A DNA stretch of 64,000 nucleotides from an uncultured Acidobacteriota bacterium (GTDB lineage: Bacteria > Acidobacteriota > Thermoanaerobaculia > Thermoanaerobaculales > Sulfomarinibacteraceae): positions 384,476-448,475 of the forward strand of contig CAWJPW010000011.1 of NCBI GenBank assembly GCA_963844845.1. The letters are read 5' to 3'. Under the pieces are notes generated by a model that was given only the letters and a program-made list of their open reading frames with translations, did no database searches and was not told the origin of the DNA. Position numbers and translations under genes: made by a program. This document shows positions 5,481-56,024 of the stretch, piece after piece; position 1 is the stretch's first letter; each line of letters opens with the position of its first letter.

Positions 5481-5899
5481 TGAAATCAATGGTCTTAACG
5501 GAGTATACGAGGGATCGCTGTGGATGGCAATCCCGGATTGGCCGAGACCGGGCGAAGCCCCGGTATCGCCGCCGCCGGCACGGCCACACCGCCAGGCGCT
5601 CGTGTCGCGTCCCGGCTGCTCTCAGGCTGACTCTGCATCCACCCCCCAGTGCGGCGCCCATTGCCGATTGTGTGGCTTCCGCCCGGGGGAGTCAAGGGAT
5701 GATGTTGTCAGGCAGGGAGATAGGGCGGGGGAGAGGGGTGGCGGTGCGGTCGGTCACAGGGCCGGCGCGGGGACGTCGCCGGGGCCGCGGCGGCGGTTCT
5801 GCGGGGAGGCCCCCCGGCTCCGGCCCCGCGGGCCTCCGCTTCCGGTGACATGGGGCACGAGCTCGGCCGCCGCGGCGGCCCGGGCCCGGCGAACGCTGT

Positions 5900-5929
5900 G
5901 GTGGCGCGCTTGAGATGCGCGCCTACACC
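5900..5929 (-). repeat. Solitary REP-like hairpin of the same family as the 9.4-12.1 kb array
   Basis: GGTGGCGCGCTTGAGATGCGCGCCTACACC. It has a GC stem (GGCGCGC/GCGCGCC) followed by CCTACACC, which is the reverse complement of the GGTGTAGG head. Confidence 0.6.
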
Positions 5930-9321: not shown

Positions 9322-9420
9322 CACAGACCTCCGAGCAGACGCCAGACACTGTACGAAAGACGGGGCGATGAGGGAAGGGGGCGCGTGGGAGCCGTGGCCC
9401 TGGCAACGCTGCTCCATGGG

Positions 9421-10046
9421 CAGGCGGGGGGTGTAGGCGCGGAGCTTCTCCGCGCCACCAGGGCGCCCACCGGGCGTGCTCCGCTTGCCTGGCCCGGCCG
9501 ATCGCCGTGGGTCGCCGGAACCCCCGCCCCCGCGCCAACGCCAAGGGTGGCGCGCGAAAGTCGCGCGCCTACACCGGCGGAGCGTCGGCTGCTTCGACGA
9601 GGCGTCATGGGCGGGCGGGGGGTGTAGGCGCGGAGCTTCTCCGCGCCACCAGGGCGCCCACCGGGCGTGCTGCGCTTGCCTGGCCCGGCCGATCGCCGTG
9701 GGTCGCCGGAACCCCCGCTCCCGCGCCAGCGCCAAGGGTGGCGCGCGAAAGTCGCGCGCCTACATGGGCATGGAATTCACAGCCCCGGCCCGCGCCAAGG
9801 GCGACCCATCGACCGCGTCGGCCTCCCGAGGGCGGGCGGGGGGTGTAGGCGCGGAGCTTCTCCGCGCCACCAGGGCGCCCACCGGGCGTGCTGCGCTTGC
9901 CTGGCCCGGCCGATCGCCGCGGGTCGCCGGAACCCCCGCCCCCGCGCCAACGCCAAGGGTGGCGCGCGAAAGTCGCGCGCCTACACCGGCGCGGGATCGG
10001 CTGCAACGCGGGCGATCGACCCCGACGCCTGGGGCGCGCCTACACC
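9421..10046. repeat. Left block of REP-doublet units (3 units plus a half-REP)
   Basis: Each unit runs GGTGTAGGCGCGGAGCTTCTCCGCGCCACC ...~95 nt... GGTGGCGCGCGAAAGTCGCGCGCCTACACC, that is two GC hairpins in inverted orientation. Unit spacing is 191 then 221 bp. A half-REP GGGGCGCGCCTACACC at 10031-10046 contains the RAYT stop codon. Confidence 0.9.
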
Positions 10047-10567
10047 TTGGGTTCCAGAGCCTGATGCCACAGGATGTCTTCGGGGCTCCTGGAGGCATCG
10101 AGGAGATCGCCCAGGTTCGGCCACATCAGCGAACCCGACGCTCCCCAATCGGCCCAGTGCTCCACCAGGCCCTTGCGCACCGGATTCTCGATGATGTACC
10201 ACACCGTCGCTGCGATCCCGTCCAGCCGGCGGATTACCCGGTCGTGGTACCCGCGCTGCCACACGGGGCCCTCAGCACGCTCATGCCGCAGATTGCGAGC
10301 TACTACCGCTTTGAATGCCTGGGCGAACGCTCGCGGCGACCTCAGCGGAGTCACCACCAGGACATGAACGTGGTCAGGCATCACGCAGTACGCCAGGGTG
10401 CGCCATCCCACCTCATGGAGGTTGCCCAGAACAGCCAGTGCAACCTCGGAAACGCCGGCCCGGCTGAGCAGGGGCTGCCGATTCGCGGTGCACATCGTCA
10501 GCAGAACGAGCCGACGCTTCTCTGCAAATACACAATCGTCGAGATGGTGGAGCTTGCGACGCAGCAC
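10040..10567 (-). CDS. REP-associated tyrosine transposase (RAYT; IS200/IS605-like Y1 HUH transposase)
   Basis: 175 aa. Has the HUH motif PDHVHVLVV, an N-terminal LLTMCTANRQPLL, and a C-terminal WYIIENPVRKGLV (the Y..NPVRxGLV helix typical of RAYTs). Flanked on both sides by inverted REP hairpins. GTG start. Confidence 0.8.
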   Translation of the reverse strand: MLRRKLHHLDDCVFAEKRRLVLLTMCTANRQPLLSRAGVSEVALAVLGNLHEVGWRTLAYCVMPDHVHVLVVTPLRSPRAFAQAFKAVVARNLRHERAEGPVWQRGYHDRVIRRLDGIAATVWYIIENPVRKGLVEHWADWGASGSLMWPNLGDLLDASRSPEDILWHQALEPKV

Positions 10568-10619
10568 CTATCGATGATAGCCGCGCCGCCCTCTTGCCCG
10601 CACCGCACGCCAACGGGCA

Positions 10620-12102
10620 GGGCGGGCGGGGGGTGTAGGCGCGGAGCTTCTCCGCGCCACCAGGGCGCCCACCGGGCGTGCTGCGCTTGCCTGGCCCGGC
10701 CGATCGCCGTGGGTCGGGGGAACCCCCGCCCCCGCGCCAACGCCAAGGGTGGCGCGCGAAAGTCGCGCGCCTACACCGGCATGGAATCCACAGCCCCGGC
10801 CCGCGCCAAGGGCGACCCATCGACCGCGTCGGCCTCCCGAGGGCGGGCGGGGGGTGTAGGCGCGGAGCTTCTCCGCGCCACCAGGGCGCCCACCGGGCGT
10901 GCTCCGCTTGCCTGGCCCGGCCGATCGCCGCGGGTCGCCGGAACCCCCGCCCCCGCGCCAACGCCAAGGGTGGCGCGCGAAAGTCGCGCGCCTACATGGG
11001 CATGGAATTCACAGCCCCGGCCCGCGCCAAGGGCGACCCATCGACCGCGTCGGCCTCCCGAGGGCGGGCGGGGGGTGTAGGCGCGGAGCTTCTCCGCGCC
11101 ACCAGGGCGCCCGCCGGGCGTGCTCCGCTTGCCTGGCCCGGCCGATCGCCGCGGGTCGCCGGAACCCCCGCCCCCGCGCCAACGCCAAGGGTGGCGCGCG
11201 AAAGTCGCGCGCCTACACCGGCATGGAATTCACAGCCCCGGCCCGCGCCAAGGGCGACCCATCGACCGCGTCGGCCTCCCGAGGGCGGGCGGGGGGTGTA
11301 GGCGCGGAGCTTCTCCGCGCCACCAGGGCGCCCACCGGGCGTGCTGCGCTTGCCTGGCCCGGCCGATCGCCGTGGGTCGCCGGAACCCCCGCCCCCGCGC
11401 CAACGCCAAGGGTGGCGCGCGAAAGTCGCGCGCCTACACCGGCATGGAATTCACAGCCCCGGCCCGCGCCAAGGGCGACCCATCGACCGCGTCGGCCTCC
11501 CGAGGGCGGGCGGGGGGTGTAGGCGCGGAGCTTCTCCGCGCCACCAGGGCGCCCGCCGGGCGCGCTGCGCTTGCCTGGCCCGGCCGATCGCCGTGGGTCG
11601 CCGGAACCCCCACCACGGCGCCAGCGCCAAGGGTGGCGCGCGAAAGTCGCGCGCCTACACCGGCATGGAATTCACAGCCCCGGCCCGCGCCAAGGGCGAC
11701 CCATCGACCGCGTCGGCCTCCCGAGGGCGGGCGGGGGGTGTAGGCGCGGAGCTTCTCCGCGCCACCAGGGCGCCCACCGGGCGTGCTCCGCTTGCCTGGC
11801 CCGGCCGATCGCCGCGGGTCGCCGGAACCCCCGCCCCCGCGCCAACGCCAAGGGTGGCGCGCGAAAGTCGCGCGCCTACACCGGCATGGAATTCACAGCC
11901 CCGGCCCGCGCCAAGGGCGACCCATCGACCGCGTCGGCCTCCCGAGGGCGGGCGGGGGGTGTAGGCGCGGAGCTTCTCCGCGCCACCAGGGCGCCCGCCG
12001 GGCGTGCTGCGCTTGCCTGGCCCGGCCGATCGCCGCGGGTCGCCGGAACCCCCACCACGGCGCCAGCGCCAAGGGTGGCGCGCGAAAGTCGCGCGCCTAC
12101 AC
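10620..12102. repeat. Right block: 7 near-identical tandem 221-bp REP-doublet units with a 442-bp higher-order pattern
   Basis: Exact 221-bp phasing of GGTGTAGG heads. Units 5 and 7 share the variant CACCACGGCGCCAGCGCC in place of CGCCCCCGCGCCAACGCC. The 65-nt linker contains an AT-richer core, CATGGAATTCACAG. Confidence 0.9.
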
Positions 12103-12164
12103 TGGCGGGGGGTCGGCTGCTTCGAGGCGTCATGGGCGATCGGGTGAGCGCCCCCCGGTCTCCC

Positions 12165-13388
12165 CTACCCCACCGCCAGGCTGCGGTAGTACTCCGCCGC
12201 GCGCTCCAACCCCTCGCCCAACCCCACCTCGGCGGCGAAGCCGAGGGCGTCACGAGCGCGCGTGGCATCGGCCATGGAGTGGCGCACGTCGCCGGGGCGG
12301 GGCTCGCCGTGGATAGGCTCGGGGCCGCCACCGGCTGCCGCCCGCACCAACCGAGCCAGCTCGTTCACCGTGGTGCGGCTGCCCGGGGCGACGTTGTACG
12401 CCCGCCCACACGCCTCCGCCGAGGCGCCGGCGGCGTGGAGATTGGCGGCCACGGCGTCGGCGACGAAGGTGAAGTCGCGGCTCTGCTCGCCGTCGCCGTG
12501 GATGAGCGGCGGCTCGCCGGCCAGGCTGGCGGCGAAGAAGCGCGGGATCACCGCGGCGTAGGCCCCGGCGGGATCCTGGCGCGGGCCGTAGATGTTGAAG
12601 TAGCGCAGGCCCACCAGCTCCATGGCGTAGCAGGCGGCGAACAGCTGCGCCAGCTCCTCGTTCATGACCTTGGAAAGAGCGTACGGCGACAGCGGCATCC
12701 CCTCCTCGCCCTCACGCTTGGGCAGGGTGTCGGAGTCGCCGTACACGCTGGAGGAGGAAGCGTAGACCAGCCGGCGGACGCCGGCGTCGCGGGCCGCCGC
12801 GAAGACGTTGGCGGTGCCGGCGACGTTCACCGCAATGCTGGTGGCGGGATCGGCCATGGAGCGCGGCACCGAGCCCAGGGCGGCCTGGTGGAAGACGTAG
12901 ACGGGAGAGGGAAGACGGGAGACGGGAGACGCTTTCCCCCACCCACCCGGGGCCTCCGCGGTACCGGCGCCTGAGACCCCATCCGTCGGTACCGGCGCAG
13001 CCGGCTCGGTGGGGTCGGCGTCGGGGTCGGTGCGGCCGGTCATCGCCGAGGTCACCAGCGCACCGCGGCCACCGAGGCCGGCGCGCCCGTCGAGGGGCTC
13101 GAGCCCCATGGCGAGGCGGCAGTCGCCCGCGTTGCGGATATCGCCCAGAACCACGGTGACGGGCGCCACCGACGAGGCGACGACGGTGGGCAGCGGCGCC
13201 GCGGCGAGGGCCTCACGCTCGGCCGGCGCGAGCAGGTGGGCGAGGTTCTCGACCCTTCCTGTGGCGAGGTTGTCGAGCACGGTGACCCGTGCACCCCGCT
13301 CGAGCAGCGCATCCACGAGGTGGGAGCCGATGAAGCCGGCGCCGCCTGTTACAGCCACCGGCACGTCACGAAGCATCGGAATGGTCAT
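12165..13388 (-). CDS. NAD-dependent UDP-sugar 4-epimerase (WbpP/TviC-like extended SDR) carrying a 67-aa in-frame insertion
   Basis: Rossmann motif VTGGAGFIGSHLV, HQAALGSVPRS, catalytic SPYALSK, and GLRYFNIYGPRQDPAGAYAAVIPRF. The protein is 407 aa versus about 340 typical. The extra segment between GDIRNAGDCRLAMG and VYVFHQAALG corresponds to 12903-13103. Confidence 0.85.
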   Translation of the reverse strand: MTIPMLRDVPVAVTGGAGFIGSHLVDALLERGARVTVLDNLATGRVENLAHLLAPAEREALAAAPLPTVVASSVAPVTVVLGDIRNAGDCRLAMGLEPLDGRAGLGGRGALVTSAMTGRTDPDADPTEPAAPVPTDGVSGAGTAEAPGGWGKASPVSRLPSPVYVFHQAALGSVPRSMADPATSIAVNVAGTANVFAAARDAGVRRLVYASSSSVYGDSDTLPKREGEEGMPLSPYALSKVMNEELAQLFAACYAMELVGLRYFNIYGPRQDPAGAYAAVIPRFFAASLAGEPPLIHGDGEQSRDFTFVADAVAANLHAAGASAEACGRAYNVAPGSRTTVNELARLVRAAAGGGPEPIHGEPRPGDVRHSMADATRARDALGFAAEVGLGEGLERAAEYYRSLAVG

Positions 13389-17685: not shown

Positions 17686-18315
17686 TCAGGCGCTCAGTGC
17701 CTTGAGCGCGTTGGCGTCCACCTCGATGCGGTGTCTGGCCCGCAGCATCTCCATGAGCACCCGCGCGCGCTGGCCGCCCCGCATGTAGCCGTGGAAGATG
17801 CCCTCGTAGCCCCGCAGCGGGCCGGCCATCACCCGGACCCTCTGGCCCTTGGTGAGCTTGTCGAGGAAGGTCTCGGGCACGATGTAACCGTGCTCGGCCT
17901 CCTTCTCGCGCAGGTAGTCGATGAGGCTCTGATCAACCGTGGCCAGCTCCCCCGCGAACACAACCGGGTGGAGAACGCCCGGGCAGAAGCGCACGGCGTT
18001 GAGCTCCTCGGGCAGCCGGCAGCTGACGAAGATGTAGCTGGAGAAGAGCGGCATCGGGCCACGTGGGGCCCGCGTGTGCCACGGCGGCTCGAGGAACATG
18101 GGGCAGTACGGCTCCACCCCCCGCTGGACAAGATGGCGCATGGCGATCCGCTCCTGGCGGGGCTTGGTCCGCATCACCAGCCAGTGCAGACTGCAGTCGA
18201 GCGCTACAGTATCGACGCGACCCTCCCTTTCTCGATCCTCGCCCGAATTATGTGAACCTCGCGCCCGCCGTGTCAAGGTGAGCCGGAGGAGGGGCAAGCA
18301 GTCTCGTGCCGCCAA
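17686..18315 (-). CDS. NusG-family specialised transcription antiterminator paralogue (RfaH/UpxY/LoaP/TaA-like)
   Basis: NGN-like HWLVMRTKPRQERIAMRHLVQRGVEPYCPMF...PLFSSYIFV. KOW-like GQRVRVMAGPLRGYEGIF. It is the first gene of the co-directional polysaccharide string. The start is uncertain: the track uses TTG at 18315, and the internal GTG/ATG at 18177/18174 would truncate the NGN strand. Confidence 0.75.
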   Translation of the reverse strand: MAARDCLPLLRLTLTRRARGSHNSGEDREREGRVDTVALDCSLHWLVMRTKPRQERIAMRHLVQRGVEPYCPMFLEPPWHTRAPRGPMPLFSSYIFVSCRLPEELNAVRFCPGVLHPVVFAGELATVDQSLIDYLREKEAEHGYIVPETFLDKLTKGQRVRVMAGPLRGYEGIFHGYMRGGQRARVLMEMLRARHRIEVDANALKALSA

Positions 18316-18423
18316 TCCAACCCCAGCAGCTGCAACGAGCTCGGGCGCTCAGGATCCTCGAGTCCACAGAGAGTGTCACGCCGGACACGGCCCACCACCA
18401 ACGGGCTCGAGTATGATCCAGGC

Positions 18424-19566
18424 ATGGCGCTGGACCTCAAGCGATGGTTGGCGGAGTTTCCGGTACGGGAGCACTTTCTCTACCTGGATCACGCCGCGGT
18501 GTGCCCCCTCCCCCGCCCGGTGGCGGAGGCGATGCGGCGGCGCATCGCGGGTCAGGAGGAGAACGGCTACGCCAAGGCCGACGAGTGGCGCCAGCAGATT
18601 CTCAGCTGCCGGCACCTGGGCAGCCAGCTGCTGGGCTGCGGCCCCGAGGACGTCTCGGTGGTGCGCAGCACCTCGGAGGGGCTCAGCCTGGTGGCGCAGG
18701 GGCTCGACTGGCACGAGGGCGACGAGGTCCTCGTGGGCGAGGAGGAGTTCGCGGCCAACGTCGCGCCCTGGCTCGCCCTCGCAACGCGCGGCGTGCGGGT
18801 GGTGCGCTTTCCGGAGCCCGACGGCCGGGTGGACCCCGCTGTGGTGGCCGAGCACCTCACCCCCCGCACCCGGGTGCTGGCGATCTCCTGGGTGGCCTTC
18901 CACACCGGCTGGATCGCACCGCTGGCCCAGCTCGGGGCGCGCTGCCACGACAACGGCACCCTGATGGTAGTCGACGCCATCCAGGGGCTCGGCGTGCTGC
19001 CCATGGACATGCGCGCCCTCGGCGCCGACGCGGTGGTGGCGGACGGCCACAAGTGGCTGCTGGGCCCGGAAGGAGCGGGGCTGCTGGGCACCACCCCCGA
19101 GCTGCGGGCGCGGCTGCAGCCGGTGCTCGGGGGGTGGCGCAACGTCACCCTGGCGCGCGGCGACTTCTTCCTGCGCACGCTGGAGTGGCTGGAGGACGGC
19201 CGGCGCTTCGAACCCGGCGCCGCCAACGAGGTGGGGATCGCCGGCCTGGCCGCCGCCCTCGACCTCGTCTCCGAGGTGGATCGGGAGGTGATCCAGGCGC
19301 GGGTGGAGAACCTGGCGCGGCTGCTCACCCGCATCCTCCTGGCACACGGCTGGGACGTGCTCTCGCCGGGCTCGGGTCACCCCATCGCCGGCATCGTCGC
19401 GGCGCGCCACCCCAACATCCCGGCCCGTGAGGCCCGCCGGCGGCTGGCCGAGCGCCGGGTGGTGTGCTCGGCGCGCCAGGGCTACCTCCGCCTCTCGCCA
19501 CACTTCTACATCACCAAGGGGGAGCTGGAAGCCTTCGACCGGATCCTCGAGAAGGCGGGGATGTAG
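18424..19566 (+). CDS. Class-V aminotransferase (cysteine desulfurase/selenocysteine lyase-like)
   Basis: From the ATG at 18424: MALDLKRWLAEFPVREHFLYLDHAAVCPLP.... PLP-lysine context is ADGHKWLLGPEGAGLL. C-terminus is GYLRLSPHFY. Confidence 0.8.
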   Translation: MALDLKRWLAEFPVREHFLYLDHAAVCPLPRPVAEAMRRRIAGQEENGYAKADEWRQQILSCRHLGSQLLGCGPEDVSVVRSTSEGLSLVAQGLDWHEGDEVLVGEEEFAANVAPWLALATRGVRVVRFPEPDGRVDPAVVAEHLTPRTRVLAISWVAFHTGWIAPLAQLGARCHDNGTLMVVDAIQGLGVLPMDMRALGADAVVADGHKWLLGPEGAGLLGTTPELRARLQPVLGGWRNVTLARGDFFLRTLEWLEDGRRFEPGAANEVGIAGLAAALDLVSEVDREVIQARVENLARLLTRILLAHGWDVLSPGSGHPIAGIVAARHPNIPAREARRRLAERRVVCSARQGYLRLSPHFYITKGELEAFDRILEKAGM

Positions 19567-19576
19567 GGCCGGGCAC

Positions 19577-20160
19577 GGGAGACGGAAGTCGGTAGAAGGA
19601 AAACGCTTCCCCCGCCCGCCCCCGTGGCCGGGTGACCGGGGCAGGGACCGCGGCAGGGGCAGCGTCAGGGTCAGGGGCAGGGACAGGGGCAGGGTCCGGC
19701 GACCGGCGACCGGCGGCCGGGGCCGTGGACCGGGGCCGGGGCCGTTGGCAGGGGCCGGGACCGCGTGCGTGTGCGCGTCCGGGATCGTGGGTCGAGTCCG
19801 TCCCGGAGCACCTGCCCTCCGGCGGACGTGCCACCTCCGACACTTTTCCTTCGAGCGCCTCCTCGCGTTGAAGCGCGCTCGGGGAAACAGTGTCGGGGGT
19901 GGCAATCACGGCCCTTGGCGTTCGCAGAAGTGGCCCCGAACCACGAGGCAGGCGACTCGGCGCTGGGACCCGGGGGCGGCCTCGTTGCCGTCTGTCAGCT
20001 CGTGTCGTCGCCGCCCCCGGGGCCGCGTCGACGGGCGGCACAGCCGCCCGGGAGCCGGTCTCCGCAGCTGCGGTGACCGCGACCCTCGCGGAGGACCGCC
20101 GCACCCCGCAGCTGGGTGGGCGGGGGAAGCTTCTTCCTTCTCCCCCTCTTCCTTCTCCCG
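19577..20160. repeat. ORF-less composite cassette bounded by a type A/type B inverted arm pair
   Basis: Arm A (19577-19623) is GGGAGACGGAAGTCGGTAGAAGGAAAACGCTTCCCCCGCCCGCCCCC. The reverse complement of arm B (20115-20160) is CGGGAGAAGGAAGAGGGGGAGAAGGAAGAAGCTTCCCCCGCCCACCC. The interior holds a GGGNCA-type hexamer tract (19626-19770) and copy 1 of the ~250-nt structured repeat (19819-20068). Confidence 0.8.
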
Positions 20161-20207
20161 TGATCGGGCGCCGACACAGCCCTCCGTCCTTGCTATGATG
20201 AAGAGCT

Positions 20208-22916
<2,709 letters not shown>

Positions 22917-36571: not shown

Positions 36572-37312
36572 TCAGCCCCGGGGAAGCGGCAGCAGCGCGC
36601 CGCCCGAGACCGGGAGGTCGACTCCGGTGAGGTGGCGGGCTCGTTGGTCGTCAGCGAGAAACAGCACCGCTTGGGCGACGTCCTCGGCATCGGCGATGCG
36701 CCCGAGCGGCACCGTGGCACGGACCTGCTCGGCACGCCCCGCAACTCCGAGGGCCGGCGCGGCCATGGGCGTCAGCACCCAGCCGGGCGACACCTGGTTG
36801 ACCCGGATGGCCGGCGCCAGCTCCTGGGCCAGGGACTGCACCAGGCCCCACAGCGCCGCCTTGGAGCCGGCGTAGTGGGAGTGTCCCGGCTCGCCGCGCT
36901 GGCCGGCCGTGGAGCCCACGAAGACGATGCTGCCCCGGGTCATCATCCGCGCCGCCTCCCGCGCCAGGAAGAAGGCCGAGAAGGTGTTGGTGCGGAACAT
37001 CTCCTCCAGGCGCCCGGCGTCGAGCTCGCGGATCGGGCCATGGTTCCAGATCCCCGCCGAGTGCACCACAGTATCGAGACCGTGGGCGGCGGCCACAGCG
37101 GCGACGCAGCCCGCCTCGGTGGCGAGGTCGGCCTGCACCGGCACCACCCGGTCGGGGTACTCCCGGGCGAGGAGCTGGACTGGCGGCTCCTGCGAGCGGT
37201 ACTGGGCCACCACCCGGTCGCCCCGGGCGAGGAAAGCTCGGGCGCAGGCGAGGCCGATCCCCGACGAGGCGCCGGTGACGAGGATGGTTCGGGGTGTGGA
37301 GTGCTCTGACAT
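36572..37312 (-). CDS. Short-chain dehydrogenase/reductase (FabG-like)
   Basis: From the ATG at 37312: MSEHSTPRTILVTGASSGIGLA...; catalytic YAGSKAALWG; C-terminal TGVDLPVSGG. The track ORF (to 37561) over-extends into repeats. Confidence 0.9.
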   Translation of the reverse strand: MSEHSTPRTILVTGASSGIGLACARAFLARGDRVVAQYRSQEPPVQLLAREYPDRVVPVQADLATEAGCVAAVAAAHGLDTVVHSAGIWNHGPIRELDAGRLEEMFRTNTFSAFFLAREAARMMTRGSIVFVGSTAGQRGEPGHSHYAGSKAALWGLVQSLAQELAPAIRVNQVSPGWVLTPMAAPALGVAGRAEQVRATVPLGRIADAEDVAQAVLFLADDQRARHLTGVDLPVSGGALLPLPRG

Positions 37313-37482
37313 GGGGACCTCCCGAGGGCGTACGGTACACGGGCGGGACGGGAGATGGAAGAAGCTCCCCCTCCAACCGCTCAAGGACCCGGCAGGGACC
37401 GCGGTGCCGGTCCCGGTCCCTGCCCCTGCCCCGGCCCCGGACGCGGCCCGGTCTCCGATCCCCGTCCCGGTCCGGACCCGAT

Positions 37483-37730
37483 GCTCCGGACACCGGCTCC
37501 CGGGCGGCTCCACCGCCCGTCGGCGCGGTCCCGGGGGCGGCAGCGGCGTGCGCTGCCGCACGGCAACCAGGCCGCCCTCGGGCCCTCAGCGCCGAGTCGC
37601 CTGCCTGGTTGTTCGAGGCCACTGCTGCGAAGGGTGTACCCGTGGATTGCCACCCATGGCGTTTCCCCCAAGCGCGCTCCAAGTGAGGAGGAGCTCCCGG
37701 GAAGACGCCATAAGTGGCACGTCCCACCGG
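37483..37730 (-). repeat. Copy 2 of the ~250-nt structured dispersed repeat (orientation label arbitrary)
   Basis: Shares the near-identical module CACCGGCTCCCGGGCGGCTCCACCGCCCGTCGGCGCGGTCCCGGGGGCGGCAGCGGCGTGCGCTGCCGCACGGCAACCAGGCCGCCCTCGGGCCCTCAGCGCCGAGTCGCCTGCCTGGTTGTT with copies at 39201 and 39510. The distal hairpin arms are CCATGGCGTTTCCC (37654-37667) and GGGAAGACGCCAT (37699-37711). Confidence 0.85.
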
Positions 37731-37918
37731 AGAAACCCTGCTCCGTCACGGTCTCGGTCGCCGCCCCGGACGCGGCCCCGGGCCCGATGGACCGACGATC
37801 TCGGGTTGTCGTCGCGAATGCGAGGGCCTCCTATTCTAAAGAATCTCGAGAGAGCAGCGAGGCTGCTACACTGATTCCCTAGTCTGTCAGGGAGAATCTC
37901 GGCAGCAGGGGGTGATCC

Positions 37919-39199
37919 ATGAAGGTCCCGAGGATCCTCGCCGCAGTGCTCTTCGGCTGTGTGTTGTGCGCCGGTGCCACGGAGTTCACCGTGAACTCGA
38001 CTCTCGACGAGATCGACGCCGTACCCGGCGACAGCAGCTGCTTCTCCACACCGAGCGGCGTGTGCACGCTCCGCGCCGCCATCATGGAGGCGAATGCGTT
38101 GAGCGGCCACGACGACATCACCGTGCCGGCCGGGCACTATGTCCTGTCCCTCACAGGCCTCGAGGAGAACGGCTCGGCAACCGGAGACCTCGACGTCGTG
38201 GAGCCCCTGTTCATCACCGGTGCCGGGATCGGCGCCACCGTCATCGACGCCAACCACATCGACAGGGTCTTCCAGGTCCTCATGGGCGACCTCTCTCTCG
38301 AAGATCTCACCATCCAGAACGGATCCGCCGTAACCTCGGGCTCCGCGAGCGGTGGCGGCATCTACCACGGGGGCAACAACCTCTGGCTCACCCGAGTACG
38401 GCTCACCGGCAACCAGGCCAACGCCGGCGGCGGCCTCCAGGTCGCCCACGAATCGTGGGCGGTTATCCAGGCCAGTACATTCGACCACAACTCCACCGTC
38501 GACCTGGACGTCACCAACCAGTGGGGAGCGGCGGTGCTCAGCAGTGGCACCCTCAGCCTCTCCTCCACCACTGTGACCGCCAACAGCAACGCCGTGGGCG
38601 ACACCGAGGTGGTCTTCCTGGAAAGCTGCAACACCGAGTTCTCGAACATCTTGGACTCGACCATCGCGTTCAACAGCGGCGGCGGCGTGTACGCCTACAA
38701 CTGCAGCCTGACCGTGAGTAACTCGACCATCTACGCCAACTCCGGCTACGGGATCGAGTTCGGCATCTACACCGGGCTGGACTACACCCTGACCGGGAAG
38801 AATTCGATCATTGCCGGCAACAGCCCGTCGGACTGCATCCTGTGGTCCGGAACCATCGCCTTTTCACACAACCTGGACAGTGACAACACCTGCGGGCTCG
38901 AGCTCGCTGCGGGCGACCTGCCGGCCACCGATCCGGTGCTCCTTCCCCTGCGCAACTGGGGCGGGTCCAACCAGAGCCTGTACCCCAAGCCCGGGGCCAG
39001 CCCGGTGATCGACGCCGGCGGGACGAGCTGCACACCCTTCGATCAGCGCCACGTCGCCCGTCCCGTCGACGGCGACGGCAACGGCTCCGCCGTCTGTGAC
39101 ATGGGCGCCATCGAGGCGGGCGACCTCATCCTCTGGGCCGGCCACGAGGCCGGCAACAGCGACGAGTGGTCGTCCACGGCAGGCCTCGCAACGCCCTGA
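37919..39199 (+). CDS. Secreted right-handed parallel beta-helix protein ('choice-of-anchor Q'/Pmp-like repeats)
   Basis: Signal peptide MKVPRILAAVLFGCVLCAGA. CTLRAAIMEANALSGHDDITVPAGHYVLSLTG...GDLDV. Repeated G-rich beta-helix turns (GGGIYHGGNN, NAGGGLQV, SGGGVYAYN). C-terminal CDMGAIE. Confidence 0.7.
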   Translation: MKVPRILAAVLFGCVLCAGATEFTVNSTLDEIDAVPGDSSCFSTPSGVCTLRAAIMEANALSGHDDITVPAGHYVLSLTGLEENGSATGDLDVVEPLFITGAGIGATVIDANHIDRVFQVLMGDLSLEDLTIQNGSAVTSGSASGGGIYHGGNNLWLTRVRLTGNQANAGGGLQVAHESWAVIQASTFDHNSTVDLDVTNQWGAAVLSSGTLSLSSTTVTANSNAVGDTEVVFLESCNTEFSNILDSTIAFNSGGGVYAYNCSLTVSNSTIYANSGYGIEFGIYTGLDYTLTGKNSIIAGNSPSDCILWSGTIAFSHNLDSDNTCGLELAAGDLPATDPVLLPLRNWGGSNQSLYPKPGASPVIDAGGTSCTPFDQRHVARPVDGDGNGSAVCDMGAIEAGDLILWAGHEAGNSDEWSSTAGLATP

Positions 39200-39200
39200 A

Positions 39201-39446
39201 GCGGGCACCGGCTCCCGGGCGGCTCCACCGCCCGTCGGCGCGGTCCCGGGGGCGGCAGCGGCGTGCGCTGCCGCACGGCAACCAGGCCGCCCTCGGGCCC
39301 TCAGCGCCGAGTCGCCTGCCTGGTTGTTTGGGGCGGGTACTCCGGGCGCTTCGGGCCGTCAGTGCCCCCCCGAACACTGTTTCCGCGATCGGGCTGCAAA
39401 TGAGGAAGCGCTCCAGGAAAAGTGTTCGGGACGGCACGTCGTGCGG
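39201..39446 (-). repeat. Copy 3 of the structured dispersed repeat
   Basis: Starts 2 nt after the beta-helix gene stop. Distal hairpin arms are CCCGAACACTGTTTCC (39369-39384) and GGAAAAGTGTTCGGG (39416-39430). Confidence 0.85.
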
Positions 39447-39509
39447 AGGGCCTGTGCTCCGGGACGGGGGGGGCTTCGATGAGCGCCATGGGATTGCTGG
39501 CAGGGGGTT

Positions 39510-39762
39510 CTGCGGGCACCGGCTCCCGGGCGGCGGCTGGCCCGCCGCCCGTCGGCGCGGACCCGAGGGCGGCAACGGCGTGCGCTGCCGCACGGCAACC
39601 AGGCCGCCCTCGGGCCCTCAGCGCCGAGTCGCCTGCCTGGTTGTTTGGGGCCACTGCTCCGGTCGCCAAGGGCCGTGGGAGCCCCCCTTGACGTTTCCCG
39701 CCAACGCACCGCAAGGGAGAGCGCGCTTGAGGGAAGACGTCAAGGACGGCACGCCCGCCGGA
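39510..39762 (-). repeat. Copy 4 of the structured dispersed repeat (direct tandem with copy 3, ~64-nt gap)
   Basis: Distal hairpin arms are CCTTGACGTTTCCC (39686-39699) and GGGAAGACGTCAAGG (39731-39745). Confidence 0.85.
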
Positions 39763-39847
39763 AGGCCTGTGCTTTGGGGCAGTGTTCAGCCTCCTCCGCT
39801 GATTGGGGGCGATTCAGTTGTACGAGGTACTCCGCAGCAACGCGAAG

Positions 39848-39876
39848 GGTGGCGCGCGAAAGTCGCGCGCCTACAC
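39848..39876 (-). repeat. Solitary REP hairpin identical to the array's right-hand REP
   Basis: GGTGGCGCGCGAAAGTCGCGCGCCTACAC, read directly. Confidence 0.8.
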
Positions 39877-40044
39877 AGCATCACACCGCTCCCAACGCGC
39901 TGAGGCTGTACGGGCACGCCGCCCTGGCGCAGCCACGGCCGGACGCGAGGGAGGTGCCGTGCACACGCTCGCGTGTGCAGCGGCGCCGACCGAGTGGCCG
40001 TAGGCCGCGAAGCGGCCGGCGTGCCCCGGCGGCTGCACCGCGCC

Positions 40045-48195: not shown

Positions 48196-48363
48196 CCGGG
48201 GCCGGGGACCGGTACCGCGTCCGGCACCGGGTCCGGTACCGCGACCGGATCCGGAGACCGCGACCGAGGCCGGGACTCGGACCGGGGGCGGGGGCCCTCA
48301 TCACCTCATTACTTCATCACCTCATCACCGGGCGGTCGGGCGGGTACGTGTAGGATACCGGTC

Positions 48364-52676: not shown

Positions 52677-53623
52677 AGCTGGTGATCCAGATCCCGGCCT
52701 GGGACGAGGAGGCACACCTCGGCGTGGCGCTGGAATCGTTGCCGCGCCAGGTCCCGGGCTGCGACGAGGTCGAGGTCCTGGTCGTGGACGACGGCTCCAC
52801 CGACCGCACCGCTGAAGTGGCCCGCGCGCATGGCGCCCGCGTCGTGCCGCTCCACACCCACCGCGGCCTGGCGGTAGCCTTTGCCACGGGCCTGCGCGCC
52901 GCGCTCGAGCTCGGCGCCGACGTCATCGTCAACACCGATGCGGACAGTCAGTACGACCACCGCGACATCCCTGCCCTGGTGGCCCCCATCGTCGCCGGCG
53001 AGGCCCAGATGGTCATCGGTGACCGCCAGGTGGAGACCCTCCCGCACTTCTCGTTCATCAAGCGGATCCTGCAGCGTCTGGGCTCGGCGGTGGTGCGGCG
53101 CCTGTCGCGCACCGAGGTACGCGACGCCACCTCCGGGTTCCGCGCCCTCTCGCGGGCCGCCGCACTCAAGCTGCAGGTTTTCACCCGCTTCACCTACACG
53201 CTGGAGACCATCCTCCAGGCCGGCGAGGCGGGGCTGCGGGTGGTCTCGGTGCCGGTCCGCGTCAACCCGGAGGTTCGGCGGCCCTCGCGCCTCTTCCGAT
53301 CCAACCTCGGCTACGTGCTGCACTCGCTGGAGAGCATCGCGCGTATCGTGGTGCTGTACAACCCGCTGCGGATCTTCCTCCGGCTCGGGTGGCTGCCGGT
53401 GCTGGCCGGCATGATCCTGCTCGTGCGCTTCCTCTACTACTACGTGGTCGGCCACAATCCGGCCGGCCACGTACAGTCACTGTTGCTGGCGGTGATCCTG
53501 GTGGTGGTCGGGGTGCAGATCTGGGTCGTTGGCCTGGTGGCCGACCTCATCGCGGTGAACCGCCGTCTCCTCGAGGAGGTGGTGGAGCGCCAGCGCGGCG
53601 GCCCGCCTAATGGCGGCATCTGA
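52673..53623 (+). CDS. GT2 polyprenyl-phosphate glycosyltransferase (GtrB/CsbB/DPM1-like) with C-terminal TM helices
   Basis: IQIPAWDEEAHLG...VLVVDDGSTDRT...NTDADSQYD...SGFRA; two C-terminal TM helices. ATGA overlap with the upstream stop. Confidence 0.85.
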   Translation: MKLVIQIPAWDEEAHLGVALESLPRQVPGCDEVEVLVVDDGSTDRTAEVARAHGARVVPLHTHRGLAVAFATGLRAALELGADVIVNTDADSQYDHRDIPALVAPIVAGEAQMVIGDRQVETLPHFSFIKRILQRLGSAVVRRLSRTEVRDATSGFRALSRAAALKLQVFTRFTYTLETILQAGEAGLRVVSVPVRVNPEVRRPSRLFRSNLGYVLHSLESIARIVVLYNPLRIFLRLGWLPVLAGMILLVRFLYYYVVGHNPAGHVQSLLLAVILVVVGVQIWVVGLVADLIAVNRRLLEEVVERQRGGPPNGGI

Positions 53624-54599
53624 GCAGCCGCCGGCCGGACGCTGGCTGCGCCCGGCCGGCGCCCTCGTCGCCCTCGTCCTGGTCCTTGGGGTTCTGGCCT
53701 TGGCCGGCCCCACGCTGGTCGCCCGACGGCTGGCCGAGACCGATCTCGCCTGGGTGGCCCTTGCTGCAGCCGTCTTCCTCGCCACCGTCACGGTGCGCGG
53801 CGTCCGTCTCAGCATCCTCGCCAGGCGGCCCGGTCCCCTGGCGGCCATCGCAGTGGCTGCCGCCGCCCAGGCTGCCGCCCAGCTGGTGCCGGCGCGGGCG
53901 GGTGAGCTCGCCCTGCCCCTGCTGCTCCGCCGCCACGGCGGACTCGACCTGAGCCGCGGCGCTGGCGTACTGCTGGCGGCCCGCGCCCTCGACCTCGCCG
54001 CTCTGGGTGCATGGGCCGCCGCCGCCCTCCTCACCGTGTCGGGGCTCGGCCATCCGGCCGCCCTGGCCGGTGCAGCGCTCCTGCTGCTCCCGGCACTCCT
54101 GCTGCCCGCCCTGCTGGCGGCTGCCGACCGCTTCGCCAGCCGCCTGCTGGCACCCCGCGGCGCCCGCTGGCGGCGCCAGGTCCGACGTCTGCGTCGTCTC
54201 CGCCGCAGCCTCGACGAGCTGCGGCGGGCTCCGGCCCGGCTCGCTGCGGCGGTGGTCGCCTCGCTGCTCATGTGGGCCGGTGTCTGGGTCTACACCTGGC
54301 TACTGCTCATCGCGCTCGGTTACCGGTGGGCGCTGCCCACCGTGACGGCGGGATCGGCGGCCGCTGCCGTGACCAATCTCGTACCCATCAACCTGGTGGG
54401 CAACCTGGGCACCCTCGAAGCCGGCTGGACCGCCGCGTTCACGGCCCTGGGCATCCCCCTGGCGGACGCCGCAGCGTCCGGCCTCGCCGCCCACCTTTGG
54501 GCACTGCTTTTCACGGCGACCACTGGCGGCCTCGCCGGCGCGGTGCTCGCCCTGCGCCGGAAGCCGACGAACCCCGAGAGCGGCGAGCACACGACCTGA
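53610..54599 (+). CDS. Membrane protein of the lysylphosphatidylglycerol-synthase TM-region (UPF0104, 'flippase-like') family
   Basis: 329 aa with about 8 TM segments. Ala/Leu-rich with a conserved-looking RGVRLSIL near TM2. Overlaps the GT2 gene by 14 nt. Confidence 0.55.
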   Translation: MAASEQPPAGRWLRPAGALVALVLVLGVLALAGPTLVARRLAETDLAWVALAAAVFLATVTVRGVRLSILARRPGPLAAIAVAAAAQAAAQLVPARAGELALPLLLRRHGGLDLSRGAGVLLAARALDLAALGAWAAAALLTVSGLGHPAALAGAALLLLPALLLPALLAAADRFASRLLAPRGARWRRQVRRLRRLRRSLDELRRAPARLAAAVVASLLMWAGVWVYTWLLLIALGYRWALPTVTAGSAAAAVTNLVPINLVGNLGTLEAGWTAAFTALGIPLADAAASGLAAHLWALLFTATTGGLAGAVLALRRKPTNPESGEHTT

Positions 54600-54704
54600 C
54601 GAAGGCCAGGGGTGCCGCCGGGGTCCGGCCGTGGCTCCGCCACGGCGGCGTGCCCTCACGCGCTCCGCAGAATCGACCCGAGGCCGCCTCGGAGCAGGGA
54701 TCCT

Positions 54705-54956
54705 CCGGCGGACGTGCCGTCCCGAACACTTTTCCTGAGGCGCCTCCTCGTTCGTAGCGCGATCGCGGAAACAGTGTCCGGGGGGGCACTCACGGCCCGT
54801 GCCATTCGGAGCAGTTGCCCCAAACGACCAGGCAGGCGACTCGGCGTGTTCGCGAAGGGGGCTATGTTGCCGTCAGGCAGCCACTGCCGTCGCCCCCTTC
54901 GCGAACGCGCCGACGGGCGGCGGCTCAGCCGTCGCCCGGGAGCCGGTATCCGCAGC
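54705..54956 (+). repeat. Copy 5 of the structured dispersed repeat
   Basis: CCGGCGGACGTGCCGTCCCGAACACTTTTCCTGAGGCGCCTCCTCG...GGAAACAGTGTCCGGG...CAGGCAGGCGACTCGGCG...CGACGGGCGGCGGCTCAGCCGTCGCCCGGGAGCCGGTATCCGCAGC is colinear with copy 1 (19819-20068). Confidence 0.8.
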
Positions 54957-55027
54957 ATCCACAACCACCATCCCCCGCTCCTCCCAACCCCACTCACCTC
55001 CCGGAGCACAGATCCGCCGACGCCGTC

Positions 55028-55552
55028 TCAGCCCGCGTCACCGGTTCCCCGCCCGCCGTCACTCTGCGGATGTTCGGTATCACCGGCCAGCATGCAGAGG
55101 GCGTGAGGCAGCACCTCGAGGATCGCCTCGAGGTTCTCCACCGCTGCCTTGTGGCTGCCCGGAAGGTTGACGATGAGAGTGCTCCCGGCGATGCCGCACA
55201 CCCCGCGCTGCAGCCAGGCGTGCGGCGTGATCCTGGCCGACGCCGCCCGCATCGCCTCGGCAAGCCCGGGGACCTCGCGCTCGAGCACCACCCGGGTGGC
55301 CTCCGGCGTGATGTCGCGGGGGGCGCACCCGGTACCGCCGGCGGTCACCACCAGAGCGTGACCCTCCGCCACCAGGCGCCGCAACGTGCCGGCGACGGCG
55401 TCGACCTCGTCCGGTACCACACCGGCCCACACCACCGTCAGGCCGAGGCGCTCGCCGAGCAGCGCCGACACCGCCGGGCCGGCGGTGTCGCGGGCGAGAC
55501 CCGCGGCGCAGCGGTCGGACACCGTGAGCACCGCGGCACGGCGCTCAGTCAT
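55028..55552 (-). CDS. moaB: MoaB/MogA-family molybdenum cofactor biosynthesis protein
   Basis: From the ATG at 55552: MTERRAAVLTVSDRCA...VVTAGGTGCAPRDITPEAT...GSTLIVNLPGS. Confidence 0.85.
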   Translation of the reverse strand: MTERRAAVLTVSDRCAAGLARDTAGPAVSALLGERLGLTVVWAGVVPDEVDAVAGTLRRLVAEGHALVVTAGGTGCAPRDITPEATRVVLEREVPGLAEAMRAASARITPHAWLQRGVCGIAGSTLIVNLPGSHKAAVENLEAILEVLPHALCMLAGDTEHPQSDGGRGTGDAG

Positions 55553-56024
55553 CGCCCTCCGCCTTCCACTCGCCCGAGCGCCCGCCGCTCTTTTCCAGCA
55601 GGCGGACGCGCTCCAGTACCATCCCCCGACCCAACGCCTTGAGCATGTCGTACAGGGTGAGCCCCGCCACGGCGGCGGCGGTGAGCGCCTCCATCTCGAC
55701 TCCGGTCGCGGCGTGGGTGGCGGCGCTGGCCACCACCCGGATGCGGTCGGGACCGGGCTCGAAGTCCACCCGCACCACGTCCAGCGGCAGCGCATGGCAG
55801 AGGGGGATCAGCTCGGAGGTCCGTTTGGCGGCGAGAATCCCAGCCAGGCGCGCCGTCTCGTACACATTGCCCTTCGGGGTGCGGCCCTTGTGCACCGCTT
55901 GCATCACCTCGACGCCGGTGACCAACACCGCCTCGGCGGTGGCGCGACGGCGTGTCGCGGGCTTGTCACCCACGTCCACCATGCGCACCCGACCCTCGTC
56001 GTCGAGGTGACTCAGCTCGTCCAT
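55545..56024 (-). CDS. moaC: Cyclic pyranopterin monophosphate synthase
   Basis: From the ATG at 56024: MDELSHLDDEGRVRMVDVGDKPATRRRATA...KGNVYETARLAGILAAKRTSELIPLCHALPL...GVEMEALTAAAVAGLTLYDM. Confidence 0.95.
   Translation of the reverse strand: MDELSHLDDEGRVRMVDVGDKPATRRRATAEAVLVTGVEVMQAVHKGRTPKGNVYETARLAGILAAKRTSELIPLCHALPLDVVRVDFEPGPDRIRVVASAATHAATGVEMEALTAAAVAGLTLYDMLKALGRGMVLERVRLLEKSGGRSGEWKAEGDD

Follow-up and report, generated by a model that had tools for sequence, protein, structure and literature searches.

A structured, mosaic family of ~280-nt intergenic repeats in an uncultured Acidobacteriota bacterium

What kind of element is a structured repeat of ~280 nt that recurs five times within 64 kb of an uncultured Acidobacteriota chromosome? 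We examined this question in a stretch of 64,000 nt (contig CAWJPW010000011.1 of assembly GCA_963844845.1, forward-strand positions 384,476 to 448,475), hereafter the window. An initial annotation, made from the letters alone, had described five copies with co-varying hairpin arms and had favoured either a mobile hairpin element, akin to MITEs (miniature inverted-repeat transposable elements) or REPINs, or a dispersed non-coding RNA (ncRNA) family. We found that the unit is multicopy, occurs in at least two genomes, is a mosaic of modules and lies in tandem beside a gene-sized insertion. We favour, at about even odds (probability roughly 0.5), a reading of the unit as a hitherto undescribed family of interspersed repeats that are non-coding and constrained in structure, within the broad class of BOX, bcr1, ERIC and REPIN.

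An nhmmer search of the window recovered five full copies of ~280 nt each, with 67–78% mutual identity (E 4e-76 to 2e-71), and a covariance model built from these copies (R1) scored each of them at 252–263 bits (E 1e-61 to 1e-64). The five copies are thus real in the orientations originally given; their positions stood, but the units proved some 30 nt longer than the ~250 nt first proposed. The 17-mer AGGCAGGCGACTCGGCG is invariant and has exactly five exact occurrences in the window, and a gapped pattern of two motifs is expected 0 times by chance, as judged from shuffled sequences. The copies and the pieces that accompany them are listed below, where P2 is the 75-nt hairpin of the fold and types A and B are its two forms.

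19790-20072, + strand: copy c1, full length; covariance model 262.6 bits, E 4e-64, and nhmmer; P2 at about 19829-19904
37480-37759, − strand: copy c2, full length; covariance model 259.1 bits; P2 at about 37648-37720, type B (5′-arm bulge or mismatch), fold z −6.8
39195-39475, − strand: copy c3, full length; covariance model 258.7 bits; P2 at 39363-39436, type A
39476-39505, − strand: C-rich linker between the tandem copies c4 and c3, ~45 nt if measured between the nhmmer boundaries
39506-39790, − strand: copy c4, full length, in tandem with c3; covariance model 251.7 bits; P2 at 39681-39750, type B
54676-54960, + strand: copy c5, full length; covariance model 256.1 bits
54999-55035, + strand: sixth, truncated copy, consisting of the 5′ 38 nt only (TCCCGGAGCACAGATCCGCCGACG...), by local alignment to the 5′ end of c3

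The truncated sixth copy has moderate support, with an alignment score of 19 compared to 13.9 ± 2.1 in shuffles and a 13-nt exact core. It lies 46 nt past c5, the same spacing as the 45 nt in the tandem pair c4/c3, and the C-rich stretch after c5 resembles the c4–c3 linker (score 26 when the linker and the start of the next copy were aligned together). The fragment runs into the 3′ end of a MoCF-domain gene (55028-55795, − strand). Among the full copies, c5 is the most divergent and, by per-pair counts, the source of five compensatory pairs in the hairpin P3; in the alignment, the loop of its last hairpin carries a 6-nt insertion that is also seen in c4.

RNAalifold predicted a fold of ~90 pairs in the order P1, P2, an A/C-rich linker, P3 and P4. 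P1 is a short 5′ hairpin (CCGGAG/CTCCGG), P2 has arms that vary in sequence with complementarity kept, P3 is a second long hairpin and P4 is a terminal GC hairpin (CGGGCGG/CCGCCCG); the conserved linker between P2 and P3 carries the invariant 17-mer. In the five-copy alignment, 92.6% of the cells are paired and 16 pairs are changed on both sides. Column shuffles contained 7.1 ± 1.9 such double-changed pairs, none of the 500 shuffles reaching as many, and sliding the partners by 1–3 columns left only 2–5. When two partial copies from a second genome (contig L095, described below) were added, the seven sequences showed 93.4% pairing and 15 double-changed pairs; in this set, co-varying pairs made up 7/20 in P2 and 5/14 in P3, and the P2 pair 51:108 was present as four different Watson-Crick types. 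Folded singly, every P2 hairpin greatly exceeds its shuffles in stability (z −3.6 to −8.2), and the arm sequences that had been quoted for this distal hairpin were correct. Overall, the excess of compensatory changes over shuffled and slid alignments supports the view, already advanced in the initial annotation, that the fold is conserved by selection on pairing.

The further claim that all versions of P2 carry the same single-nucleotide bulge held only in part. The irregularity occupies a constant position, 5 bp below the inner loop, but it switches arms: type A hairpins (CACTTTTCC-type; c1, c3, c5 and the L095 copy) have a bulged C on the 3′ arm, and type B hairpins (c2 and c4) have the irregularity on the 5′ arm, in the form of a 1x1 mismatch in c2. 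The sequence CYTCYTC is found in the P2 apical loop of 6/6 hairpins examined. The stem CAACCAGGC/GCCTGGTTG shows one compensatory change, to CGAGGC/GCCTCG in c1 and both L095 copies, and since it competes with P3 the structure of this part is tentative. The U·G pair of the GUUGCC/GGCAGC hairpin is invariant and both of its arms are unchanged in all copies.

Does selection act on an RNA or on single-stranded DNA? A first count gave 24 G·U against 12 A·C, favouring the aligned strand, a figure that is biased because the structure had been predicted on that same strand. Symmetric treatment of the two strands gave 9 versus 7 in the shared pairs and 40 versus 39 in their union; as the excess was gone, strand assignment through G·U pairs was rejected. 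The alifold energies of the two strands are alike (-132.4 and -130.8) and the fold energies of single copies favour neither strand consistently. With strand-neutral G·U counts, selection may act on RNA or on single-stranded DNA. A scan for promoters and terminators, which covers consensus types only, detected neither a promoter of the sigma-70 type nor an intrinsic terminator within or next to any of the copies, which leaves the proposed dispersed ncRNA family without support from either signal. No open frame is shared across the copies and their indels are not multiples of three, so a coding element was rejected; together with the lack of promoter and terminator, these indels suggest that the unit is not a gene. 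A tRNA- or SINE-like origin was rejected as well, no tRNA gene having been found in the window, element included.

Copies also occur outside the assembly. The window gene between c2 and c3 encodes a beta-helix protein, and its orthologue (79% identical) lies on a 1,945-nt contig (L095) of NCBI GCA_975971185.1, a related metagenome-assembled genome (MAG). Each end of this contig carries a truncated unit, the two having the same orientation and R1 scores of 143 and 105 bits. The beta-helix gene is 81.8% identical in DNA between the window and L095. Against their positional counterparts the element parts show 70% and 81% identity, and against c1 as much as 82% and 89%, whereas the non-element spacer upstream of the beta-helix gene is 51.5% identical and essentially unalignable; the elements are thus much better kept than the neighbouring non-coding DNA. 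In L095, 237 nt of GC-rich non-coding DNA (1589-1825) separate the beta-helix stop from the downstream element, while in the window the element overlaps the stop codon, which shows that the gene–element junction is not fixed. L089, a Logan contig of 1,558 nt drawn from a public set of reads, is 99.8% identical to the window and has its two ends within c2 and c3, so that both short contigs with the flanked beta-helix gene break inside copies. Copies that flank an orthologous gene in a second genome, along with these assembly breaks, imply that the repeat is not a local segmental duplication confined to the 64-kb window, an outcome that the initial annotation had named as speaking against its own view.

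Sequence identity is distributed over the unit in a modular way. Copies c2 and c3 are 99% identical in the 3′ module (119 columns) and 58% in P2, c3 and c5 are 89% identical in P2 and 70% in the 3′ module, and the 3′ module of c4 is 90–91% identical to those of c2 and c3. A module of ~125 nt had been described as nearly identical in all three minus-strand copies, which is accurate for c2 and c3 but overstates the likeness of c4. These modular identities point to exchange between copies and to gene conversion. The L095 copies are nearer to c1 than to their positional partners; since the closest pairs are thus not the positional orthologues, concerted evolution is a probable contributor.

Searches of larger collections returned no additional copies. 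The two-motif pattern had 0 matches in the genome, metagenome and viral contig collections, a 22-base pattern had 0 matches in the metagenome collection and three further viral pattern scans gave 0 or chance matches only. The 17-mer alone had at least 88 matches in genome contigs, and all those fetched were chance by nhmmer. Nothing was recovered from plasmid and phage collections (blastn, distant mode) or with a six-frame translation of two copies as a protein query, which looked for spurious open reading frame (ORF) calls over other copies. Copies that end short-read contigs may help to explain these empty scans, and fragmented assemblies may hide copies. At the loci of SNF2 orthologues in four relatives (~80 kb, 62–65% protein identity) neither nhmmer --max nor the covariance model detected the element, and none was found with nhmmer --max or the covariance model at the loci of five more distant beta-helix homologues. 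SNF2 helicase homologues are at most 65% identical and, where named, belong to Thermoanaerobaculales, Holophagae or Acidobacteria MAGs; the 90%-identity clusters of ten window proteins were singletons or absent, and no closer relative was found in this way. The SNF2 matches suggest a Thermoanaerobaculia-like, uncultured Acidobacteriota lineage that lacks near relatives among sequenced genomes. Rfam 15 was the covariance-model library tested, and HEARO, IS605-orfB and Acido-1 are expected among its families. It gave no match at the gathering threshold in the 64 kb and none at E<=10 on the copies in 37400-39900, in agreement with the initial annotation, which had not recognised the repeat as a known family. 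Searching the literature for repeats or MITEs of acidobacteria turned up nothing specific.

The window is chromosomal DNA of 70% G+C with ordinary genes, among them those for SecA, IMPDH, MoeA, RibD, lipoate ligase, an AcrB efflux pump and polysaccharide synthesis. As originally reported, the copies sit in unrelated intergenic contexts, namely one tandem, two convergent and one divergent region, with one copy abutting a stop codon; the flanking genes are of the aminotransferase, SNF2, SDR, beta-helix, cyclase, LPG-synthase-type and MoCF-domain kinds. Copy c1 lies between genes for a class-V aminotransferase (18373-19566, + strand) and an SNF2 helicase (20208-22916, + strand), as assigned by Pfam. 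Copy c2 occupies the divergent region between the SDR gene (36572-37312, − strand; start inferred from translation) and the beta-helix gene (37919-39199, + strand), and the 3′ end of c3 abuts or overlaps the stop codon of the latter (39195-39199). Copy c5 begins ~80 nt past the stop of an LPG-synthase-type gene (53610-54599, + strand) in a convergent intergenic region.

Other repeats adjoin several of these copies. G/C-rich intergenic hexamer microsatellites at 19622-19763 and 37402-37473 (CCGGGG x22 and CGGTCC x12) border c1 on its 5′ side and c2 on its 3′ side; on the strand of the element they are rich in G and include runs such as GGGGCAGGGGCAGGG. A GGGAGACGGGAGACG-type repeat family forms two inverted pairs (12903-12952/14025-14074 and 19572-19625/20107-20162), the second of which brackets the microsatellite and c1 directly upstream of a promoter-like site of SNF2 (20171-20199). 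A 46-nt hairpin repeat (GTCCGGCCGTGGCTCCGCCACGGCGGCGTGCC...) is found at 54623-54668 (+) and 39899-39944 (−), 83% complementary between the sites. Both sites closely follow the end of a gene and lie upstream of c5 and c4, respectively; the repeat could be a terminator-like module or a miniature derivative of the element.

Three of the five copies belong to a single segment at an operon junction:

37313-40044, no strand assigned: segment parting the SDR and cyclase genes, recognised from gene order and orthology in comparison with the relative L090

This 2.73-kb segment contains a microsatellite, c2, the oppositely oriented beta-helix gene, c3, c4, a GTAG-type repetitive extragenic palindrome (REP) and the hairpin repeat. 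The cyclase and SDR genes of L090 share a 4-nt overlap; identity between the window and L090 orthologues is 73% for SDR, 53% for the cyclase and 64% for the neighbouring HD-GYP protein. The overlap in L090, compared with the 2.73-kb gap here, indicates that the repeats accompany a gene-sized insertion at this junction. The direction of the event, an insertion in the window lineage, would follow from comparison with this one distant relative.

How does the unit compare with known element classes? It is small, non-coding and multicopy (~280 nt, five copies plus a fragment), as a MITE would be, but the first 35 and last 40 nt of all five copies match as inverted repeats no better than shuffles do (77–384 of 500 shuffles as good). 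For c1, c3, c4 and c5, alignment of the flanks in search of target-site duplications was no better than in shuffles or cross-copy pairs; for c2 the score was 17 against 9.4 ± 2.1 in shuffles, the flanks of this copy being microsatellite-like and of low complexity. A DDE-derived MITE was therefore rejected, and the MITE label was not sustained. The Correia/NEMIS elements of Neisseria, which are MITEs, likewise are small, non-coding, multicopy and intergenic, with long stem-loops (PMC3184786); the terminal inverted repeats and target-site duplications that define MITEs (PMC3184786) are both lacking here.

The REPIN-like label fared no better, since a conserved GTAG tag and short REP units are both absent from the element. 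Only one copy contains GTAG, a single time, CTAC never occurs, and the unit consists of four different hairpins, so REP/REPIN was rejected. REPs are palindromes of 20–40 nt with a GTAG/CGTC tag, arranged in inverted doublets (PMC3116915), unlike the 280-nt unit, which is no doublet of a single palindrome. Both are nonetheless intergenic hairpin repeats with compensated pairing, arranged in tandem or clusters without terminal inverted repeats or target-site duplications (PMC3116915), recognition in the form of folded single-stranded DNA is proposed for each (PMC3116915), and compensatory changes have been described in REPIN spacers and hairpins (PMC3116915). Single GTAG-type REPs are present in the window at 5884-5928 and, next to c4, at 39832-39876, and represent a family separate from the 280-nt unit.

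Identity with an IS200/IS605 end (PATE) was rejected because P1 and P4 are unrelated and no motif lies at a fixed distance. An ATCG motif is present upstream of all five copies at a variable distance from the conserved start, and the 5′ flanks show no conservation. IS200/IS605 ends, PATEs and TnpB omega-RNAs resemble the unit in lacking terminal inverted repeats and target-site duplications, in their subterminal hairpins and in size, which is near that of left end plus right end; they differ in that here the end hairpins are unlike, no target tetranucleotide stands at the boundary, there is no Rfam match and no tnpA or tnpB is adjacent. Integron attC sites measure 57-141 nt, carry RYYYAAC/GTTRRRY cores and form arrays next to intI. 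They share with the unit conservation of structure over sequence, an extrahelical base at a fixed position and, for one copy here, a location directly after a gene, but their length, cores and intI-linked arrays are not seen in our element; with 280 nt, no core sites seen and no integrase in the window, attC was rejected. A retron msr-msd or other ncRNA associated with a reverse transcriptase was rejected because the flanking genes include no reverse transcriptase.

The features of the unit are those of the BOX/bcr1/ERIC class of interspersed repeats: it is multicopy, intergenic and non-coding, with a compensated fold and a genomic distribution that varies. BOX elements of Streptococcus pneumoniae are modular intergenic repeats of roughly 100–300 nt with a variable number of boxB modules. 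By description, BOX and our unit are both modular and non-coding, with no classical signature of terminal inverted repeats and target-site duplications; each exists as many diverged copies predicted to fold very stably, and each possesses conserved end modules that pair around a variable middle; as described, BOX differs in that our unit has four fixed hairpin domains of which one, co-varying, is variable, and in its host phylum, and no sequence relationship between the two is known. Compensatory changes are documented among copies of bcr1 in the Bacillus cereus group (PMC3184786). Both bcr1 and our unit are interspersed repeats of ~150–300 nt with a multi-stem fold kept by such changes, and in both the genomic distribution is not conserved between relatives (PMC3184786). 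Copies of bcr1 are flanked by 5-bp direct repeats and have been shown to be transcribed (PMC3184786), whereas flanking repeats here are not significant.

If the unit is an interspersed repeat of this kind, its copies would spread and become homogenised at the DNA level. An enzyme acting in trans may recognise the units as folded single strands, much as HUH/Y1 enzymes do with IS200/IS605 ends and REPINs; shuffling of the modules would come from gene conversion among copies, and read-through from neighbouring genes might produce very stable RNA stem-loops from the units. We infer that recognition of folded single-stranded DNA is the most likely spreading route, given that terminal inverted repeats and target-site duplications are lacking, pairing is strand-neutral, an extrahelical base is fixed in position and copies have inserted in tandem. 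The first of these features and the missing strand excess of G·U pairs fit DNA-hairpin recognition better than a DDE transposase or a one-strand RNA, and a DDE cut-and-paste route is not favoured.

Several observations weigh against this reading. The covariation comes from seven sequences with few independent events; that of P2 amounts to two hairpin types plus small variants and that of P3 to one divergent copy. No transposase, RAYT, TnpA/TnpB, IS110 recombinase, integrase or reverse transcriptase was found in the 64-kb window. Terminal hairpins P1 and P4 are dissimilar, unlike the left- and right-end hairpins of IS608-type elements, both copy orientations occur within 64 kb, which counts against a strict lagging-strand bias, and the copies are 22–33% divergent, a degree that looks old for a mobile family still active. 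Close relatives yielded no empty site, the sole synteny contrast being L090 with orthologues 53–73% identical, and L090 may instead have undergone a deletion.

The alternative that survives best, which we consider unlikely overall, is that the copies act as cis-acting RNA modules in neighbouring mRNAs, where their stacked GC-rich hairpins would stop 3′ exonucleases, cause transcription to pause or terminate, or supply RNase III sites. Such roles have been reported for REP/BIME, ERIC and Correia elements. Four of the five copies lie within ~260 nt downstream of a gene end in the orientation of that gene, their folds are very stable, the units have no promoter of their own, and they are kept at the same locus in two species. 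However, in convergent and divergent regions either orientation is "sense" to some gene, so that orientation has no statistical weight; c2 is upstream, not downstream, of its co-oriented gene, no U-tract terminator was found and the presumed RNA strand shows no G·U excess. A cis-acting RNA role is compatible with a repeat origin, through exaptation.

Rather doubtful is the idea that the copies are dispersed genes for trans-acting small or medium ncRNAs, with the C/U-rich loop of P2 (CCUCCUC, anti-Shine-Dalgarno-like) and the A/C-rich linker as interaction surfaces. Co-variation of the stems alongside sequence conservation of the single-stranded segments, the loop motif common to all six P2 hairpins, and the invariant U·G in a hairpin with unchanged arms would suit such RNAs. 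Against them stand the missing sigma-70 promoters and intrinsic terminators in or next to any copy, the non-conserved 5′ flanks, the strand-neutral G·U counts and the lack of an Rfam match. In addition, positional orthologues are less alike than non-orthologous copies and modules are shuffled, which is unexpected for genes with individual targets.

We regard as quite improbable the bolder proposal that the unit is the nucleic-acid part of an unrecognised mobile or recombination system, in which the 17-mer linker and P3/P4 would bind a dedicated enzyme encoded elsewhere, the arm-switching base of P2 would set specificity or strand choice, and genes would be carried along, as the element-flanked beta-helix gene might illustrate.

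It is similarly improbable, if slightly more so, that the copies are recombination sites or portable homology bounding a beta-helix cassette that moved as a unit, in analogy to attC cassettes or repeat-mediated integration. The order element–gene–element in two genomes, the direct orientation of the copies around the beta-helix gene within a 2.7-kb block that is absent between cyclase and SDR in L090, the 99%-identical module shared by the flanking copies c2 and c3, and a conserved extrahelical hairpin base reminiscent of attC logic all speak for it. Yet there is a single "cassette" only, c1 and c5 flank no inserted gene, more distant beta-helix homologues (50–56% identity) have no nearby element, and the distance from stop codon to element differs between the two genomes (overlap versus 237 nt); the unit is far from the size range of attC, R′/R″ core sites are absent and the window has no integrase.

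A comparably low probability attaches to orphan insertion sequence (IS) RNAs, that is, guide or scaffold RNAs (TnpB/IscB omega-RNA, IS110 bridge RNA) or IS200/IS605 PATE ends left behind or acting in trans. The unit has a suitable length and multi-helix fold, lacks terminal inverted repeats and target-site duplications, and has a conserved 3′ module with variable flanking DNA beyond it. Conversely, Rfam gave no match even at the permissive cut-off, no TnpB, IscB, TnpA or IS110 gene is present in the window, P1 and P4 are unlike, the copies occur in both orientations, and the variable part is a closed helix instead of an exposed loop or terminal guide. Finally, local segmental duplication or chance similarity in GC-rich DNA, suggested by three copies within 2.3 kb with a near-identical module, is refuted by the zero shuffle expectation of the motif, the covariance-model scores (E to 1e-64), copies 17 kb apart and on both strands, and the copies in L095.

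The window holds further repeats of other families. A tandem array at 9415-12244 consists of ten 221-nt units (with one 191-nt spacing), 97–98% identical, each with two GTAG-type REP hairpins in inverted orientation (GGGGGTGTAGGCGCGGAGCTTCTCCGCGCCACC ... GGTGGCGCGCGAAAGTCGCGCGCCTACAC); this BIME/REPIN-like cluster implies a RAYT-type system in the source genome. The repeat arm at 12903-12952 (GGGAGACGGGAGACG...CTTTCCCCCRCCCRCC) lies in frame inside a gene for an NAD-dependent epimerase (ORF 12165-13388, − strand), which has ~70 extra residues at this site, between the conserved motifs GDIRN...MG and VFHQAALGSVP, an arrangement that resembles Rickettsia palindromic elements. An intergenic G/C-rich repeat with a 12–24 nt period is present at 48205-48286. 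A NusG-domain paralogue (17686-18315, − strand) heads a polysaccharide-export/synthesis cluster (Wzz/tyrosine-kinase-like, UDP-glucose dehydrogenase, epimerase), which suggests an operon-specific antiterminator of the RfaH/UpxY type.

Taken together, the present evidence reveals no new mechanism; it describes a family that is new but belongs to a known kind of intergenic repeat in bacteria. The family adds a structurally defined and well-supported repeat to a poorly sampled acidobacterial lineage and has a practical effect, in that its units break short-read assemblies. It also offers a test case for two questions: whether pairing in dispersed repeats is kept through selection on single-stranded DNA, selection on RNA or templated repair, and whether such repeats promote the insertion of accessory genes at operon junctions.

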